Shown: positions 55,538-64,000, counted from the stretch's first letter. The stretch: 64,000 nt of DNA from an uncultured Granulicella sp. (GCA_965213785.1 OZ243921.1:913959-977958), one strand, 5' to 3'. Numbers and translations are program-made. Notes: generated from the sequence alone by a model not told the origin.

Positions 55538-55921
55538 CTAAGCCGCCCCCACCCCCAGGCATTCGACCAGCTTCTGCTGCACATCCGCCGGCACAAACGG
55601 CTTCACGATATACCCGTTCGCCCCCTTCTGCACCGCACTCAGCACGCTGTCCTCCCCACCCTCGGTCGTCACCATCACCACCGGCATCTCGTTCCACTCC
55701 GGCCGCGCCCGCACATTCGCCAGCAGCTCAAACCCGTCCATCACCGGCATATTCACGTCGCTCAGCATCATGCTGATCTTGTTGGCCTCAAGCACCTTCA
55801 GGGCCTCGCTGCCGTTCACCGCCTCAAAAATCGTTTGCACCGGAACCCCCGAGTCGTTCACGATGCGGCGAAGCATCTTGCGGATCAGCGGCGAGTCGTC
55901 GACAAGCAGAATGTTGAACAT
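55538..55921 (-). CDS. cheY: Chemotaxis response regulator CheY-like
   Basis: ILLVDDS, LSDVNMPVMDG, VTTE and YIVKPF; follows cheX. Confidence 0.85.
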   Translation of the reverse strand: MFNILLVDDSPLIRKMLRRIVNDSGVPVQTIFEAVNGSEALKVLEANKISMMLSDVNMPVMDGFELLANVRARPEWNEMPVVMVTTEGGEDSVLSAVQKGANGYIVKPFVPADVQQKLVECLGVGAA

Positions 55922-56014
55922 GTTGCATCTCCTCCAAAGGGTTATAGCTGAAACCGGTTCGCCTGCCGGCCGATCGGGCTGCGGCAAGGCAGGGCATGGT
56001 GCAATCTCGTGGTC

Positions 56015-56560
56015 TTACTCCAACGTCGGCGTCGTCGCCGGCCGCCGGTTTTCCTCAGAGCGCGTGATACTCAACTTCACCTGAACGTTGTACTCCCCTA
56101 CCCGCACAGGAATTGTCGTCATCCCCATTCCCGCGTTGTACATCCCCACATTCGTCCCGCAGATCACCGTCGGCGTACTCATGCCCATATAGCCAAGCGA
56201 CTCCTCCAGCGTCGTCTTCATCGTCCCGAAGATGATGTTCGACATCTCGGCCACCGCGTCCATGCCGTCATCCTTCAGCTTGCTGTCCTCCACCCCAAGC
56301 ATCAGGTTCGACATCTCGCACGCCAGGTCCGGGCTGCACTCCAGGATGCCCGTACCCTTCCAGTTCCCCAGCAGCCCGATCAGCCCGGCCACCACGTACC
56401 TCGTCTCCGACGGCTCCTGGATCTCCCCGGCGATCTCCGCCGCAAGTCCGATCATCGCGATAAACGACGCCTTGATCGACGTACTCAGAGCATCCACCGC
56501 GAGAGCCGTCACCGCCTCCGCATTGTTCAGGCAATCGTCCACACACGCGTCCTCACTCAT
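56015..56560 (-). CDS. cheX: Chemotaxis phosphatase CheX
   Basis: VAGLIGLLG, DAVAEMSNII.G and MSTPTVI motifs. Confidence 0.85.
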   Translation of the reverse strand: MSEDACVDDCLNNAEAVTALAVDALSTSIKASFIAMIGLAAEIAGEIQEPSETRYVVAGLIGLLGNWKGTGILECSPDLACEMSNLMLGVEDSKLKDDGMDAVAEMSNIIFGTMKTTLEESLGYMGMSTPTVICGTNVGMYNAGMGMTTIPVRVGEYNVQVKLSITRSEENRRPATTPTLE

Positions 56561-56838: not shown

Positions 56839-59583
56839 GTGAAATCCCCAGAAATTGACGAAGATCTTCGAGAGTTCCTCATCGAGAGCAGCGAAAACCT
56901 TGCCAATCTCGACCGTGAAATCGTTCAGCTCGAACAGACCCCCGGAGACATCGCCCTCGTCTCCAGCGTCTTCCGCACCATCCACTCCATCAAAGGAACC
57001 TGTGGCTTCTTCGGCTTCGACCGCCTCGGCTCCCTCGCCCACATCACCGAAAACATCCTCAGCCAGGTCCGTGAGCGCAAACGCGTCCTCACCCCCGAGC
57101 TCATCTCGATCATTCTCGAAGCCGTCGACGAGATCAAGATCATGCTCGCCAGCATCGAGTCCGCCGGCAACGAAGGAGAAGAGCGCACCGTCTCCCTCCG
57201 CGCCCGCCTCAACGCCACCCACAAGGAAGTCGACACCCCCGCCGCCGCCCCCATCGCCCCAACTCCCGCGCCCGTAGCCGCAGCCCCGGCCCTGCCGCCC
57301 GCTGCCCCGCCACCCGCTGCCCCGGAGGTTCCGCCATCCAGCCCAGCCCCGGCCACAGCTTCCATCCCACCCCCCGCCAAGAAGCCCGCCCCCCCCGCCG
57401 CTGACGGCGAAGCCAATCTCGCCGACTCCACCATCCGCGTCGACGTCAAGCTCCTCAACAAGCTCATGAACCTCGTCGGCGAACTCGTCCTCGCCCGCAA
57501 CCAGCTCCTCCAAGACCCCTCCCTTCCCAATAGCAGCCTCCACCGGACCTCGCAGCGCCTCAACCTCATCACCTCCGAGCTGCAGGAAGGCGTCATGAAG
57601 ACGCGCATGCAGCCCATCGGCGTGGTCTGGAACAAGCTCCCCCGCGTCGTCCGCGACCTCGCCTCCAAATGCGGCAAGAGCGTCCAGATCGAGATGGAAG
57701 GCGCCGGCACCGAGCTCGACAAAACCATCCTCGAAGCCATCAAGGACCCCCTCACCCACATCGTGCGCAACTCCTGCGACCACGGCATCGAAACCCCCAG
57801 CGTCCGCATCGCCAAGAACAAGAATCCCGAAGGTCTGCTCCTCCTCCGCGCCTACCACGAGGGCGGCGTGGTCAACATCGAGATCTCCGACGACGGCGCC
57901 GGCGTCGACCCCGAGCGCGTCAAGGCCAAAGCCGTAGAAAAGGATCTCATCCGCCCCGACCAGGCCGCCCAGATGAGCGTCCACGACGCCATCCAGCTCA
58001 TCTTCCTCCCCGGCTTCTCCACCGCCGCCCAGGTCACCAGCATCTCCGGCCGCGGCGTCGGCATGGACGTCGTCAAAACCAACATCGAGAAGATCGGCGG
58101 CCACGTCGAGGTGATGAACCGCCCAGAATCCGGAACCATCATCCGCATCAAGATTCCCCTCACCCTCGCCATCATCCCCGGCCTTATCGTCAAGCTCGAC
58201 GCCCAAAGCCCCGCCACCGCCCTCGACCGCGTCCAGGACGACATCTCCGTCCGCCGCTCCGCCGAGGTCACCCAGCAGCGCCGCCGCTCCGGCCGAGAAG
58301 AACGCTTCGTCATCCCCCAGGCCAACCTCCTCGAACTCGTCCGGCTCGAAGGCAAGACCGGCCTCGACCGAATCGAAAGCGTCCACGGCACCCCCATCTT
58401 CCATCACCGCGGCAAGCTCCTCCCCCTCGCCTATCTCGGCAAGGTCCTCGGCCGCGCCCCCGACCTCACCCCCCGCGAGGTCGTCAACATCGTCGTCCTC
58501 CAGGCCGAGAATCAGCAGATGGGCCTCGTAGTCGACCATATCTGCGACACCCAGGAGATCGTCGTCAAGCCTCTCGGCAAGCAGCTCAAGGCCCTCTCCT
58601 GCTACGTCGGCGCCACCATCATGGACGACGGCCGCCCCGCCCTCATCCTCGACGTCATGGGCCTCGCCAAGCTCTCCGGCCTCCGTGGTCAGAGCCGCCC
58701 GGCCGCCGCCCAGCAGAACGTCGCGGCCAGCATTCCCGCCGTCCGCCAGCAGATGCTCCTCCTCTTCCAGGCCGGACGCTTCGACCGCCTCGCCGTCCCC
58801 CTCTCCCTCGTCGCCCGCCTGGAAGAGATCTCCGCCGACCAGATCGAGCGGGCCGCCGGACGCCTAGTCCTCTTCTACCGCGGAGATATCCTCCCGCTCA
58901 TCTCCCTCGCCCACGTCCTCGACCCCAGCCAGGGGGAGGTCGGCCCCCTCACCGGAACCATCCAGATCGTCGTCTTCACCAACGGCCCCCGCCGCATCGG
59001 CGTCATCGTCGATCAGATCCTCGATATCGTCAAGGAAGCCATCACCATCAAGCGCAGCAGCCCTGTCCGTGGCCTCCTCGGCTCCGCCGTCATCACCGGC
59101 AAGGTCACCGATCTCATCGACCTGCACGCCCTCGTCGAGACCACCGGAGAAAACTGGCTCGACCGCGCCCAGACCATGAAGCAGGCCACCCGCACCGTCC
59201 TCCTCGTCGATCCCTCCCCCGTCGGCCGCGAAATGCTCCAGGAATTCCTCGACGTCTCCGGATACACCGTCCTCCAGGCCGGCTCCCTCCAGGAGGCCCT
59301 CCCCAAGGCCCGCCAGAACCCCATCGACCTCGTCATCACCGCCGTCGACATGCCCGGCAGCGGAGGCAGCGGGCGCGACCTCGCCGACGCCATGCACAAG
59401 GAAGACATGCTCCAGCACATCCCCGTCCTCGGCCTCTTCGACCGCGCAGACCAGATCGTCGACGGCGAACTCGCTATGGGACCCTTCGACGCACACCTCG
59501 TCCGCAGCGATCGTGCCCGCCTCCTTGGCATCCTCGCCGACCTCATGCTCAAATCCCCTGCCCTCGCGGAGGCCATCCGATGA
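56839..59583 (+). CDS. cheA: Hybrid chemotaxis kinase CheA (Hpt-dimerisation-HATPase-CheW x2-degenerate REC)
   Basis: FRTIHSIKG, LMNLVGELVLARNQ, HIVRNSCDHGIE, DDGAG, GFSTA and GRGVGMDVV. Confidence 0.96.
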   Translation: MKSPEIDEDLREFLIESSENLANLDREIVQLEQTPGDIALVSSVFRTIHSIKGTCGFFGFDRLGSLAHITENILSQVRERKRVLTPELISIILEAVDEIKIMLASIESAGNEGEERTVSLRARLNATHKEVDTPAAAPIAPTPAPVAAAPALPPAAPPPAAPEVPPSSPAPATASIPPPAKKPAPPAADGEANLADSTIRVDVKLLNKLMNLVGELVLARNQLLQDPSLPNSSLHRTSQRLNLITSELQEGVMKTRMQPIGVVWNKLPRVVRDLASKCGKSVQIEMEGAGTELDKTILEAIKDPLTHIVRNSCDHGIETPSVRIAKNKNPEGLLLLRAYHEGGVVNIEISDDGAGVDPERVKAKAVEKDLIRPDQAAQMSVHDAIQLIFLPGFSTAAQVTSISGRGVGMDVVKTNIEKIGGHVEVMNRPESGTIIRIKIPLTLAIIPGLIVKLDAQSPATALDRVQDDISVRRSAEVTQQRRRSGREERFVIPQANLLELVRLEGKTGLDRIESVHGTPIFHHRGKLLPLAYLGKVLGRAPDLTPREVVNIVVLQAENQQMGLVVDHICDTQEIVVKPLGKQLKALSCYVGATIMDDGRPALILDVMGLAKLSGLRGQSRPAAAQQNVAASIPAVRQQMLLLFQAGRFDRLAVPLSLVARLEEISADQIERAAGRLVLFYRGDILPLISLAHVLDPSQGEVGPLTGTIQIVVFTNGPRRIGVIVDQILDIVKEAITIKRSSPVRGLLGSAVITGKVTDLIDLHALVETTGENWLDRAQTMKQATRTVLLVDPSPVGREMLQEFLDVSGYTVLQAGSLQEALPKARQNPIDLVITAVDMPGSGGSGRDLADAMHKEDMLQHIPVLGLFDRADQIVDGELAMGPFDAHLVRSDRARLLGILADLMLKSPALAEAIR

Positions 59584-60020
59584 ATCCGCTCCAGACCCGC
59601 CAGTACTCCACCTTCCGTGTCCACGGCCTCTTCCTTGGCGTCGAGGTCGTCAAGGTCCAGGAGATCATCCGCTACCAGGAGATGACCGTCGTCCCTCTCG
59701 CCCCCAACCCGGTCGAGGGCCTCATCAACCTCCGCGGCCAGATCGTCATCGCCATCGACACCCGCCGCAGCCTCGGTCTTCCCCCCATGCTCGGCGGCGG
59801 ACTCCCCATCAACGTCGTCATCCAGTCCGGAGACGGCGCCGCCAGCCTCCTCGTCGATGAGATCGGAGATGTCATCGACGTCCCCCTCGACTGCTACACC
59901 TCCGTCCCCGACAACATGCCCGCCGAACAAAGAGAGCTCATCGAAGGCGTCTACGACCTCAAGGAAGGCCTCCTCCTCGTGCTCGATACCGCACGCCTCC
60001 TGCACAACGCTTGTAACTAA
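59580..60020 (+). CDS. cheW: Chemotaxis coupling protein CheW
   Basis: ATG overlaps the cheA TGA; QEII, VPLAP..VEGLINLRGQIV and LLVDEIGDV. Confidence 0.93.
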   Translation: MNPLQTRQYSTFRVHGLFLGVEVVKVQEIIRYQEMTVVPLAPNPVEGLINLRGQIVIAIDTRRSLGLPPMLGGGLPINVVIQSGDGAASLLVDEIGDVIDVPLDCYTSVPDNMPAEQRELIEGVYDLKEGLLLVLDTARLLHNACN

Positions 60021-60045
60021 AGTTTCGCCCGCAAAGCTTCGATAC
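60018..60045 (+). promoter_or_regulatory. Putative internal sigma28 promoter for the multi-PAS receptor
   Basis: TAAAGTTT (overlapping the cheW stop)-N12-TTCGATAC. Confidence 0.45.
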
Positions 60046-60083
60046 ATACATTCTGAACGGCAACGAAGGATGAGGAAACGACC

Positions 60084-63000
60084 ATGCCGAACGCTACCGC
60101 CACGCCTGCCAAGAGCCGCACCGCCGTCGCCCCCGTCAAGGCGCCCCTCGCCACCCCCGCCCGCGCCAGGGCCCGCGTCGAGACCGACAACACCCAGGCC
60201 ATGCTCAACGCCATCGGCCGCTCCCAGGCCATCATTGAGTTCGATCTCGAAGGCTTTGTCCTCACCGCCAACGACAACTTCCTCGCCGCCATGGGCTACA
60301 CGCTCGACGAGATCAAGAGCAAGCACCACAGCATCTTTGTCGACGCCGCCTATCGCGACTCCTCGGAGTACAAACTCTTCTGGGACAAGCTCAACCGCGG
60401 CGAGTTCCTCACCGGCGACTACAAGCGCGTCGGCAAAGGCGGCCGCGAGGTGTGGATTCAGGCCAGCTACAACCCCATCTTCAACTCCGCCGGAAAGCCC
60501 GTAAAGGTCGTCAAGTTCGCCACCGACATCACCGCGCAGAAGATCAAGAACGCCAACTTCGAGTCCCAGCTCAACGCCATTGGGCGCGCCCAGGCCGTCA
60601 TCGAGTTCGCGCTCGACGGAACCATCCTCAGCGCCAACGACAACTTCCTCAACGCCATGGGCTACTCTCTCGACGAAATCCAGGGCCAGCACCACAGCCT
60701 CTTCGTCGACCCCGCCTACCGCGAATCCACCGAGTACAAGCAGTTCTGGGCCGCCCTCAACAAGGGCCAGTTCGTCGCCGGGGAATACCGCCGCCTCGGC
60801 AAGGGTGGCAAGGAAGTCTGGATTCAGGCCAGCTACAACCCCATCTTCGACCTCAACGGCAAGCCCGCCAAGGTCGTCAAGTTCGCCACCGACGTCACCC
60901 CCCAAAAGATGGCCACCGCCAACTTCGAAGGGCAGCTCACCGCCATCGGCCGCTCTCAGGCCGTCATCGAGTTCAACCTCGACGGAACCATCCTCGCCGC
61001 CAACGATAACTTCCTTCACACCATGGGCTACACCATCGAGGAAATCAAGGGCAAGCACCATAGCCTCTTCGTCGAGCCCGCCTACCGCGACTCCGCCGAG
61101 TACAAGCAGTTCTGGGCTGACCTCAACGCCGGCAAGTTCCTCACCAGCGAATTCAAGCGCCTCGGCAAAAACGGCAAGGAAGTCTGGATCAGCGCCACCT
61201 ACAACCCCATCTTTGATCTCAACGGCAAGCCCTTCAAGATCGTCAAGTTCGCCCACGACGCCACCGCCGCCAAGCTCAGAAACTCCGGATTCGAGTCCCA
61301 GCTCACCGCCATCTCCCGCGCCCAGGCCGTCATCGAGTTCGACCTCACCGGAAAGATCCTCGCCGCCAACGACAACTTCCTCAAGACCATGGGCTACACG
61401 CTCGAAGAGGTCCAAGGCCACCACCACAGCATCTTCGTTGAGCCCTCTTACCGCGAAAGCCCCGCCTACAAACTCTTCTGGTCCCGCCTCAACCGCGGCG
61501 AGTTCCTCACCGACGAGTACAAGCGCATCGGCAAGGGCGGCCGCGAAGTGTGGATCCAGGCCAGCTACAACCCCATCTTCGATCTCAACGGAAACCCCTA
61601 CAAGATCGTGAAGTTCGCCTCCGACGTCACCCAGCAGAAGCTCTCCAACGCAGACTTCGAAGGCCAGATCACCGCCATCTCCCGCTCCCAGGCCGTCATC
61701 GAGTTCGACCTCGAAGGCATCATCCTCACCGCTAACGACAACTTCCTCGCCACCATGGGCTACTCCCTCGACGAAATTCAGGGCAAGCACCACTCCCTCT
61801 TCGTGGAGCCCGACTACAAGGAGTCCGCCGCCTATAAGCTCTTCTGGGCCCGCCTCAACCGCGGTGAGTTCCTCACCGACGAGTACAAGCGCCTCGCCAG
61901 GGGAGGCCGCGAAGTCTGGATCCGCGCTAGCTACAACCCCATCTTCGACCTCAACGGCAAGCCCTTCAAAATCGTAAAATTCGCCTCCGACGTCACCGAG
62001 CAGAAGCTCCGCAACGCCAACTTCGAGTCCCAGCTCACCGCCATCTCTCGCGCCCAGGCAGTCATCGAGTTCACTCTCGACGGAACCATCCTCACCGCGA
62101 ACGACAACTTCCTTACCGTCATGGGCTACACCCTCGAAGAGATCAAGGGCAAGCACCACGGCATCTTCGTCGACCCAACCTATCGCGAAAGCCAGGCCTA
62201 CAAGCAGTTCTGGTCGCGCCTCAACAAGGGAGAGTTCGTCTCCGACGAGTACCGCCGCCTTGCCAAGGGGGGTCGCGAGGTCTGGATTCAGGCAAACTAC
62301 AACCCCATCCTCGATGGCAACGGCAAACCCTGCAAAGTCGTCAAGTTCGCCTCCGACATCACCGAGCAGAAGATCATCAGCGCCAACTGCGAGTCGCAGC
62401 TCACCGCCATCTCTCGCGCCCAGGCCGTCATCGAGTTCGACCTCGACGGAACCATCCTCACCGCCAACAAGAACTTCCTCGACACCGTCGGCTACACCCT
62501 CGAAGAGATCCAGGGCAAGCACCACAGCCTCTTCGTCGAGTCCGACTACCGCGAAAGCTCCGCCTACAAAAAGTTCTGGGAGCGCCTCCGCCAGGGCCAG
62601 TTCGTCTCCGACGAGTTCAAGCGCGTCGCCAAAGGAGGCCGCGAAGTTTGGATTCAGGCCTCCTACAACCCCATCATCGACCTAAACGGCAAGGCCACCA
62701 GCGTCGTCAAGTTCGCCACCGACATCACCCAGCAGAAAACCCGGAACTCCAACTTCGAGTCCCAGATCACCGCCATCTCCCGCGCCCAAGCCGTCATCGA
62801 GTTCGACATGAACGGCATCATCCTCACCGCCAACGATAACTTCCTCAGCACTCTGGGCTACTCCCTCGACGAAATCAAGGGCCGCCATCACAGCATGTTC
62901 GTCGAAACCGCCTACGGCCAGAGCTCCGCCTACAAGCAGTTCTGGACTCGCCTCAACCAGGGCCAGTTCCTCACCGACGAGTACAAGCGCATCGCCAAGG

Positions 63001-64000
63001 GTGGCCGCGAGGTCTGGATTCAGGCCTCTTACAACCCCATCTTCGACCTCAACGGTGAGCCCTATAAAGTCGTCAAGTTCGCCACCGACACCACCGAGCA
63101 GCGCGTCAAAAACGCCAACTTCGAGTCGCAAATCAACGCCATCGGCCGCGCCCAGGCCGTCATCGAGTTCGACCTCGACGGCATCATCCTCTCGGCCAAC
63201 AACAACTTCCTCAACGCCATGGGGTACACCCTCGACGAGATCAAGGGCAAGCACCACAGCATGTTCGTCGATCCCACCCAACGCGAAAGCGACGCCTACA
63301 AACAGTTCTGGGCCAAGCTCAACGCCGGCGAGTTCCTCTTCAACGAATACAAGCGCTTCGGCAAGAACGGCAAGGAAGTCTGGATCTCCGCCAGCTACAA
63401 CCCCATCTTCGACCTCAACGGAAAGCCCTCCAAGGTCGTCAAGTTCGCCACCGACGTGACCCAGCAGAAGGTCGCCACCGCCAACTTCGAAGGCCAGATC
63501 AACGCCATCTCCCACGCCCAGGCCGTCATCGAGTTCGATCTCTCCGGCAAGATCCTCCACGCCAACGAGAACTTCCTCAAGACCATGGGCTACACCCTCG
63601 ATGAGGTCAAGGGCCAGCACCACAGCATGTTCGTCGATCCCGCCTACAAAGTCAGCGTCGAGTACCGCGACTTCTGGGCCAAGCTAAACCGCGGAGAGTT
63701 CCTCTCCGACGAGTTCTGCCGCGTCGGCAAGGGCGGCAAGGAGGTCTGGATCCAGGCCACCTACAACCCCATCCTCGACCTCAACGGAAAGCCCTGCAAG
63801 GTCGTCAAGCTCGCCGCCGACATCACCGCCCAGGTCGACCTCCGCAAGCAAGCCGAGGTCCAAGAACTTCGTGAAAAGGAGATCGCCGCCGCTCTCCAGA
63901 CCAAGGTCAACAGCCTCCTCGAAGTCGTCGCCGCCGCCGCCCAGGGAGACCTCACCCGCAAGATCACCGTCACCGGAGACGACCTCGCCGGGCAGATGGC
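60084..64000 (+). CDS. Soluble chemoreceptor-like protein with ten tandem PAS domains, then a HAMP-like segment; 3'-partial
   Basis: ATG 60084 after GAGG; frame open to the window end (absent from the ORF track because it has no stop). QAVIEF..ANDNF..HHS.FV..FW..L..G..WI.A.YNPI repeats ten times, then AAAQGDLTRKITVTG. Confidence 0.9.
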   Translation, partial: MPNATATPAKSRTAVAPVKAPLATPARARARVETDNTQAMLNAIGRSQAIIEFDLEGFVLTANDNFLAAMGYTLDEIKSKHHSIFVDAAYRDSSEYKLFWDKLNRGEFLTGDYKRVGKGGREVWIQASYNPIFNSAGKPVKVVKFATDITAQKIKNANFESQLNAIGRAQAVIEFALDGTILSANDNFLNAMGYSLDEIQGQHHSLFVDPAYRESTEYKQFWAALNKGQFVAGEYRRLGKGGKEVWIQASYNPIFDLNGKPAKVVKFATDVTPQKMATANFEGQLTAIGRSQAVIEFNLDGTILAANDNFLHTMGYTIEEIKGKHHSLFVEPAYRDSAEYKQFWADLNAGKFLTSEFKRLGKNGKEVWISATYNPIFDLNGKPFKIVKFAHDATAAKLRNSGFESQLTAISRAQAVIEFDLTGKILAANDNFLKTMGYTLEEVQGHHHSIFVEPSYRESPAYKLFWSRLNRGEFLTDEYKRIGKGGREVWIQASYNPIFDLNGNPYKIVKFASDVTQQKLSNADFEGQITAISRSQAVIEFDLEGIILTANDNFLATMGYSLDEIQGKHHSLFVEPDYKESAAYKLFWARLNRGEFLTDEYKRLARGGREVWIRASYNPIFDLNGKPFKIVKFASDVTEQKLRNANFESQLTAISRAQAVIEFTLDGTILTANDNFLTVMGYTLEEIKGKHHGIFVDPTYRESQAYKQFWSRLNKGEFVSDEYRRLAKGGREVWIQANYNPILDGNGKPCKVVKFASDITEQKIISANCESQLTAISRAQAVIEFDLDGTILTANKNFLDTVGYTLEEIQGKHHSLFVESDYRESSAYKKFWERLRQGQFVSDEFKRVAKGGREVWIQASYNPIIDLNGKATSVVKFATDITQQKTRNSNFESQITAISRAQAVIEFDMNGIILTANDNFLSTLGYSLDEIKGRHHSMFVETAYGQSSAYKQFWTRLNQGQFLTDEYKRIAKGGREVWIQASYNPIFDLNGEPYKVVKFATDTTEQRVKNANFESQINAIGRAQAVIEFDLDGIILSANNNFLNAMGYTLDEIKGKHHSMFVDPTQRESDAYKQFWAKLNAGEFLFNEYKRFGKNGKEVWISASYNPIFDLNGKPSKVVKFATDVTQQKVATANFEGQINAISHAQAVIEFDLSGKILHANENFLKTMGYTLDEVKGQHHSMFVDPAYKVSVEYRDFWAKLNRGEFLSDEFCRVGKGGKEVWIQATYNPILDLNGKPCKVVKLAADITAQVDLRKQAEVQELREKEIAAALQTKVNSLLEVVAAAAQGDLTRKITVTGDDLAGQM
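60225..63830 (+). repeat. Ten 366-bp intragenic tandem repeats (PAS units)
   Basis: The QA(V/I)IEF motif starts at 60225, 60591, 60957, 61323, 61689, 62055, 62421, 62787, 63153 and 63519. Confidence 0.95.

Follow-up and report, generated by a model that had tools for sequence, protein, structure and literature searches.

Ten PAS units in exact register in a cytoplasmic chemoreceptor of an uncultured Granulicella: a candidate flavin-based redox sensor

An intact cytoplasmic chemoreceptor with ten PAS units

The analysis of a 64,000-nucleotide (nt) stretch from an uncultured Granulicella sp. (GCA_965213785.1 OZ243921.1:913959-977958; hereafter the window) reveals, at its 3' end, a gene that we call mcp, whose product carries ten tandem PAS domains at an exact period of 122 residues. 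The product is a real and intact cytoplasmic (class IV) methyl-accepting chemotaxis protein (MCP). We read it, with moderate confidence, as a cytoplasmic redox or energy sensor whose ten AerC/Aer-type PAS domains line up as a rod or string and probably each hold flavin adenine dinucleotide (FAD). The multi-PAS design to which it belongs is widespread and unstudied; the receptor stands out in it as an extreme case whose high copy number is specific to its lineage, and the system itself is not new.

The mcp coding sequence comprises 4755 nt and 1584 residues (G000:C1:974042-978796), runs 838 nt beyond the window and is uninterrupted over its full length in the genome sequence. Tandem Repeats Finder reported a single array (window positions 60203-63828; period 366, 9.9 copies, 79% matches, 0% indels, score 3806). 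When the translation was cut every 122 residues (366 nt) from residue 40 (nt 60201), ten gap-free units were obtained with mean pairwise identities of 69% for amino acids and 78% for nucleotides; 46 columns are invariant across the ten units, the pairs H42-H43 and F60-W61 among them (10/10), and Pfam places ten PAS_3 stretches on the product (E 1.3e-178). The original prediction, which had claimed ten units at an exact period without indels and with HH and FW kept in each, is thereby borne out.

The same prediction had called a soluble receptor from context. This call was right because the open reading frame (ORF) ends in an MCP signalling domain and is followed, beyond the window, by cheY, cheB, cheR and a second cheX; a kinase or GGDEF output, which had been named beforehand as speaking against it, was looked for downstream and is not present. 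The last 325 residues match MCPsignal (PF00015) at 122 bits against a cut-off of 34.6, the 31-residue sequence at the hairpin tip is almost invariant among 15 orthologues, the C-terminal arm of the signalling hairpin spans 19 heptads, and EE/QQ motifs at residues 1332, 1339 and 1514 mark putative methylation sites. As had also been claimed, the product has no transmembrane helix, the highest 19-residue Kyte-Doolittle mean being 1.23 and lying inside an amphipathic helix. No specific NCBIfam equivalog was found for the product, every equivalog match falling far below its cut-off.

Structural models made with AlphaFold2 (AF2) show canonical PAS folds both for PAS9-PAS10 with the C-terminus (mean predicted local distance difference test score, pLDDT, 84) and for units 4-6 (mean pLDDT 75.5), with confident PAS blocks (pLDDT mostly 72-94), and Foldseek matched these models to MCP, MmoS, DosP, LOV-PAS and HAMP-Tsr structures. 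In units 4-6 the linkers are modelled as 19-residue helices that begin at a conserved D-x-T motif ending each PAS, and the PAS9-PAS10 linker is broken into two helices. After PAS10 the model places a 39-residue helix, a 14-residue connector and the long two-helix MCP hairpin; the succession of helix, connector and helix is consistent with HAMP in the model. A HAMP-like segment had been predicted at this place and does exist between PAS10 and the hairpin, although its Pfam HAMP score stays below threshold (19.1 bits against 25, profile positions 6-52 of 53). Moreover, in the orthologue alignment the module of two PAS domains and signalling domain measures exactly 569 residues in Acidobacteriaceae and 555 in other orthologues, and the difference of 14 residues, or two heptads, falls within the helix that joins the last PAS to the HAMP-like segment, a step consistent with a coiled-coil transmission element after the last PAS.

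Probable flavin-binding PAS units and a proposed signalling route

By sequence profile, the units come closest among solved structures to MmoS PAS-A (3ewk, E 1e-17) and to E. coli Aer (8dik, E 4.5e-12), both of them FAD-binding PAS domains. Among the FAD-PAS clusters, clusters 4, 9 and 14 are defined by a Trp on the Fα helix as the primary FAD determinant, to which clusters 9 and 14 add a His as a secondary one, and chemoreceptors are over-represented in cluster 9, the AerC type (Xing et al. 2023, PMC10468136). The invariant W61 falls in a predicted helix (55-65, Fα) and aligns with the Aer Trp in 'DMW', and the equally invariant H43 aligns with the Aer His in 'GQPHN'. Judged from these residues and profile matches, the units would bind FAD, a view that we hold at slightly better than an even chance.

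In the mechanism that we propose, the flavin of each PAS unit would let it sense the redox or energy state of the cytoplasm, and the conformational change would travel along the helical linkers of about 19 residues that start at D-x-T. From PAS10 the signal would then run through the 39-residue helix and the HAMP-like segment into a kinase-control hairpin of about 19+19 heptads, which would modulate CheA, while CheB and CheR would adapt the response through the EE/QQ methylation sites. Ten cofactor-competent sensors in series might pool or sharpen the signal, and with them the sensing end would extend much farther than that of two-PAS relatives.

Several observations weigh against this account. 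The match of H43 to the cluster-9 His is inferred from the position of the LOV Cys (G-x-x-H/C), and the aligned units do not keep R57, H58 and D60 of Aer. The linker helices have low confidence in the monomer AF2 models (pLDDT from below 50 to about 60), so that a rigid signal-conducting rod is conjectural. The ratio of nonsynonymous to synonymous divergence (dN/dS) among the paralogous units, about 0.6, means that some units could be drifting functionally. Finally, the genome has a second cheA-cheW-cheB-cheR cluster, so that control of the flagellar motor by the ten-PAS pathway is only one possibility.

The che cluster and its possible outputs

The mcp gene is the sole receptor gene of a self-contained che cluster (Table 1), in which a divergent cheY and cheX lie on one side and cheA (with a pseudo-receiver)-cheW-mcp-cheY-cheB-cheR-cheX on the other. 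The neighbours CheW, CheX and CheY that had been named for this locus were all recovered by Pfam. The claim that CheA carries a degenerate receiver held as well: its acidic pair reads D-P, the phospho-acceptor Asp is replaced by Ala (with an Asp two positions on), Thr by Phe and Lys by Gly, and since the domain thus lacks four of its active-site residues, the second acidic one included, it reads as a true pseudo-receiver. A weak Response_reg match on CheA recurs in the operon of an 8-unit orthologue (L088), and che clusters of this class may share a degenerate CheA receiver as a conserved trait. In the alignment of the single-domain CheY encoded upstream, the active-site columns DD, D, T and K are intact.

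Table 1. Positions of the receptor gene, its PAS units and the neighbouring che genes in the window
Feature	Position	Strand	Evidence or remark
cheY, single-domain response regulator, divergent from cheA	55538..55987	-	Response_reg E 1.7e-27; likely ATG start 55921
cheX, CheY-P phosphatase family	56015..56560	-	Pfam CheX E 9.6e-15
cheA, hybrid kinase: Hpt, dimerisation, HATPase_c, two CheW-like (P5) stretches, C-terminal pseudo-receiver	56839..59583	+	Pfam
CheA pseudo-receiver	~59197-59433	+	Response_reg only 36 bits
cheW, coupling protein	59580..60020	+	Pfam CheW E 6.4e-25; start overlaps cheA stop by 4 nt
mcp, ten-PAS receptor	60084..64000	+	Cut by window end; full coding sequence to window-equivalent 64838
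N-terminal leader, 39 residues, Ala/Pro/Arg-rich	60084..60200	+	Residues 1-66 70% conserved in relative G019
PAS unit 1	60201..60566	+	122-residue register; within the clade of units 1-9
PAS unit 2	60567..60932	+	Sister of unit 9: 80% amino acid, 83% nt identity, node support 0.93
PAS unit 3	60933..61298	+	122-residue register; unit tree
PAS unit 4	61299..61664	+	122-residue register; unit tree; AF2 model of units 4-6
PAS unit 5	61665..62030	+	122-residue register; unit tree; AF2 model of units 4-6
PAS unit 6	62031..62396	+	122-residue register; unit tree; AF2 model of units 4-6
PAS unit 7	62397..62762	+	122-residue register; unit tree
PAS unit 8	62763..63128	+	122-residue register; unit tree
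PAS unit 9	63129..63494	+	Orthologue of penultimate unit in 91% relative: sister L008_u1, support 0.98; AF2 model
PAS unit 10, signalling-proximal, conserved	63495..63860	+	Most divergent: 61-66% amino acid identity to other units
Start of long helix after PAS10 and HAMP-like segment (residues 1271-1320, past window end)	63861..64000	+	

Genome-wide, five MCPs, two CheA kinases and FlhA were found. The second chemosensory cluster, cheA-cheW-cheB-cheR (G000:C1:3565342-3570848; L098 9342-14848), has neither a receptor gene nor a cheY. In a different reading of the locus, the che cluster would serve an alternative cellular function such as biofilm formation, exopolysaccharide production or development instead of the flagellar motor, the ten-PAS protein being its dedicated metabolic input. 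A CheA with a pseudo-receiver and two CheW-like domains, the presence of two cheY and two cheX genes, the restriction of the cluster to 3 of 25 genomes of the genus, and the existence of a second, classical cluster alongside four other MCPs all favour such a pathway, but flagellar FlhA is present, the second cluster lacks a cheY of its own, and the CheY proteins of the ten-PAS cluster are single-domain with intact active-site columns, like motor-binding CheYs. We consider an alternative output possible though doubtful, and it is compatible with the flavin-sensing mechanism proposed above.

Other features of these loci were recorded as well. The second cluster adjoins a gene for a SpoIIE-type phosphatase and one for a Wzi capsule-assembly protein. 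Downstream of the ten-PAS cluster, a DinB_2 and FGE-sulfatase protein is followed by a Methyltransf_33 (histidine-specific methyltransferase) protein (L006 10057-12537; G000:C1:983056-985536), a pair that looks like egtB-egtD of ergothioneine biosynthesis, and an FGE-sulfatase gene is also close to the che operon in L088. Long overlapping or antisense ORFs, for example one of 1170 residues on the minus strand (59013-62525), were not taken as genes and are probably a by-product of high G+C (G+C at third codon positions, GC3, 0.89).

Other ligands, an architectural array and assembly

If the units bound a ligand other than FAD (heme through the invariant HH pair, or a small metabolite), or none at all, the receptor would be a gas or metabolite sensor in place of a flavin redox sensor. 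In favour of this, HH stays invariant in every unit and throughout the family, the Aer triad R57/H58/D60 is missing, and some homologues (P0011, P0076) also have globin domains, which suggests a link to O2 sensing. Against this stand the best sequence matches to solved structures, which are FAD-PAS domains, and the results for heme-binding relatives. No unit carries a His on the Fα helix, the heme site of FixL/DosP-type PAS domains; the NCBIfam Aer2 model aligns to the signalling domain only (query 258-568), with no match in the PAS region; and the DosP match falls on its second PAS region (chain residues 137-243), which we take to be a non-heme PAS. A heme-PAS of the Aer2/FixL type is disfavoured on the Aer2 result and on the position of the DosP match, which lies off the N-terminal heme-binding PAS. 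Overall, we regard a ligand other than flavin, or none, as unlikely.

An array that is mostly architectural is a further option, in which signalling would fall to unit 10 alone, perhaps with its neighbour, and units 1-8 would serve as a spacer, as a scaffold for oligomerisation or as a crowding element by which the geometry of the cytoplasmic receptor array is set. Unit 10 is indeed distinct, conserved and next to the output, the three PAS domains of Vibrio vulnificus Aer2 have unequal roles (PMC13401364), and cytoplasmic receptor arrays are sandwiches whose sensing ends meet in the middle (PMC3964821), so that the length of the sensor should matter; the raised paralogue dN/dS points in the same direction. 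However, all 46 core positions, putative cofactor determinants included, are kept in ten of ten units, which is hard to square with inert spacers, and a 122-residue register held strictly across phyla suggests that transmission geometry is constrained. We judge a mainly architectural role to be distinctly improbable.

A copy number produced by the assembly, through collapse or over-expansion of repeats, is scarcely credible and was rejected on repeat divergence: repeat arrays are known to break assemblies, and the metagenome-assembled genome (MAG) of a 91%-identical relative splits inside the receptor gene, but the units are only 73-83% identical to one another at the nt level, the longest exact repeat inside the array is 36 nt, and the ORF is uninterrupted in a 4.03-Mb genome of 2 contigs that is 99.96% complete.

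Long arrays are widespread and ten units lie near their upper end

Of 8000 candidates scored in a whole-protein search, 4910 were relatives, and the best 120 of these have 4-13 units at a spacing that is almost always exactly 122 residues. Homologues with 1-13 units at this spacing occur in many phyla and are mostly MCPs, some having GGDEF/EAL matches. When a ten-unit profile was run against 1.84 billion representatives, 3895 proteins matched at E ≤ 1e-30; a stricter re-count of units in the top 150 representatives, for which near-full-length matches were required, gave 122 residues for 69% of adjacent spacings and only two MCPs with at least ten units (10 and 13). Among the best 120 relatives, at least ten units were counted in Flammeovirga MCPs (11 and 13), one metagenomic MCP (13), and Arcobacter and other NCBI proteins (10). 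The 122-residue period and the HH/FW motifs are thus traits of the PAS subfamily and not peculiar to this gene. The expectation that the ten-PAS array would be unusual stands insofar as ten lies near the upper tail, but period and motifs are subfamily-wide and arrays of 4-13 units are widespread in public data.

Seven proteins of about 1625 residues with ten 122-residue PAS units (P0009, P0048, P0049, P0051, P0054, P0064 and P0066) have GGDEF and EAL in their precomputed Pfam annotation, and the poly-PAS input module appears to be common to chemotaxis and cyclic di-GMP outputs.

The closest genomic relatives are Acidobacteriaceae. With one genome counted per species and loci taken in the cheA-cheW-mcp-cheY/cheB-cheR(-cheX) context, receptors have one unit (4 cases), two (21), three (14), four (4) or five (1), against ten here. 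An 8-unit receptor (P0003; L088 7001-10981) occupies an identical operon on a metagenomic acidobacterial chromosome, and a 9-unit homologue is an orphan gene. Ten units is the largest array found within the operon family. Within the window's GTDB genus the receptor was detected at E <= 1e-40 in 3 of 25 genomes, this one included, and at the same threshold 16 genomes drawn from other genera of its order gave no match; this patchy distribution of the receptor gene, and probably of the che cluster too, suggests loss or horizontal transfer. One congeneric genome has a receptor ORF of 730 residues, consistent with about three units. In the 91%-identical relative, a short-read MAG (G019), the receptor is split over two contig ends (G019:C279:2837-3034 and G019:C170:3-1763; L097, L095, L090), the middle of the array is missing and the unit count is at least three. 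For this family, PAS copy numbers taken from short-read MAGs are probably too low.

A full-text literature search on long tandem-PAS chemoreceptors returned no paper on arrays of more than three PAS domains, the nearest being a study of an MCP with PAS and globin domains. The cytosolic sensor MtpA of Methylobacterium was considered as a relative and dismissed, no PAS domain being detected in it.

Origin and age of the array

A tree of 138 units was used to follow the expansion. Units 1-9 are monophyletic (support 0.92), with the penultimate unit of the 91%-identical relative nested inside as the sister of unit 9, and unit 10 sits together with the units that come last in the orthologues (0.90), which in turn belong to a wider clade of last units (0.91). 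The tree shows an ancestral receptor of about two PAS domains, of which the proximal one survives as unit 10, the N-terminal type having multiplied to nine copies here. Units 1-9 arose after the split from the relatives with two or three units and before that from the 91%-identical relative. The internal units of other proteins form clades of their own, so that the N-terminal-type unit has been amplified more than once and independently across lineages, with the signalling-proximal PAS retained.

These placements do not agree with the original prediction of an old, selected expansion: the array is of intermediate age, not ancient, the clade of units 1-9 postdating the split from the 2-3-unit relatives, and selection has not been uniformly purifying. 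By the Nei-Gojobori method, paralogous units have a mean synonymous divergence (dS) of 0.37 and a mean nonsynonymous divergence (dN) of 0.23, against 0.29 and 0.07 for the comparison with the 91%-identical orthologue, where dN/dS in the signalling domain is 0.13; dS is probably underestimated because GC3 is 0.89. After duplication the unit proteins diverged about three times faster than the orthologues while keeping a fixed core. With dN/dS at about 0.6 between paralogues and about 0.23 between orthologues, this divergence is described as relaxed or diversifying on a fixed core.

A block duplication relating units 1/2 to units 8/9 had also been suggested. Unit 2 with its linkers does match unit 9 (Table 1), but units 1 and 8 are only at background identity (67% of amino acids), and the two-unit block was rejected with the match limited to unit 2 and its linkers. 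The 8-unit orthologue P0003 offers a contrast, with units of up to 97% nt identity and exact repeats of 190 nt against maxima of 83% and 36 nt here; its amplification is recent and probably still recombinogenic, unlike the diverged ten-unit array.

Implications for receptor design

A broader proposal, which we advance tentatively and with low confidence, is that the 122-residue FAD-type module forms a poly-PAS rod, a distinct input architecture with evolvable copy number that always stands in exact register upstream of a conserved proximal PAS. The N-terminal-type unit would have been amplified repeatedly and independently, from 2 to 10 PAS units in all here, to 8 in another acidobacterium and to 9-13 elsewhere. 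If it were true, redox sensing in the cytoplasm would have its gain or cooperativity adjusted by copy number, or copy number would set the spacing of sandwich arrays, in analogy to the poly-HAMP arrays of Aer2. A ten-PAS input would alter array geometry if the receptor assembles as a sandwich.

The experimentally studied soluble PAS chemoreceptors in the literature searched have one to three PAS domains (AerC, CetZ, Aer2 variants). The poly-PAS architecture is already abundant in public databases under generic annotation. The ten-PAS gene presents a clean natural test case, with ten full-length, cofactor-competent-looking units in the only receptor of a self-contained che cluster, and with no exact repeat longer than 36 nt it should be stable for cloning and sequencing. 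Natural versions with 2, 3, 5 and 8 units exist in the same operon context in relatives, and a comparison of array lengths could tell added gain, a wider dynamic range or a mere spacer role apart.

Comparison with known systems

Studied soluble PAS receptors have one to three PAS domains (PMC13401364). AerC of Azospirillum brasilense is a soluble MCP of energy taxis and aerotaxis whose N-terminal PAS domains bind FAD through a conserved Fα Trp (PMC13401364, PMC10468136); its class is labelled PAS_FAD2 and corresponds to cluster 9 of Xing, Gumerov and Zhulin 2023 (PMC10468136). The ten-PAS units carry the same Trp determinant and a His that probably corresponds to the second one, the AerC features being compared from published descriptions, and AerC has two PAS domains whereas ten stand here in strict 122-residue register. 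The PAS_FAD2 class is reportedly owed to Xie et al. 2010. E. coli Aer (8DIK) and MmoS PAS-A (3EWK), the best solved-structure matches, are likewise FAD-PAS redox sensors, but Aer is anchored in the membrane, has a single PAS whose signal passes sideways to HAMP, and carries R57/H58/D60 residues that are not conserved here, and MmoS is a histidine kinase.

In ground plan the receptor recalls BdlA of Pseudomonas aeruginosa and CetZ of Campylobacter jejuni, soluble PAS-PAS-MCP proteins (PMC13401364) that have two PAS domains only, BdlA being likened by architecture alone. The ten-PAS array appears to derive from a two-PAS plan like theirs and like that of the syntenic two-PAS orthologues. Aer2 of Vibrio vulnificus and Leptospira, with three heme-PAS domains, similarly places like PAS sensors in series before the MCP output (PMC13401364); it differs in its heme-binding PAS domains and HAMP arrays, and its NCBIfam model matches only the signalling domain here. 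Further counterparts are unstudied database proteins, namely the Flammeovirga MCPs with 11-13 units, the Arcobacter proteins with 9-10 units and GGDEF/EAL, and the acidobacterial che-operon MCPs with 5-8 units, which share the PAS subfamily, the 122-residue spacing and the HH/FW motifs with the ten-PAS receptor and differ from it in copy number and in the age of the amplification.

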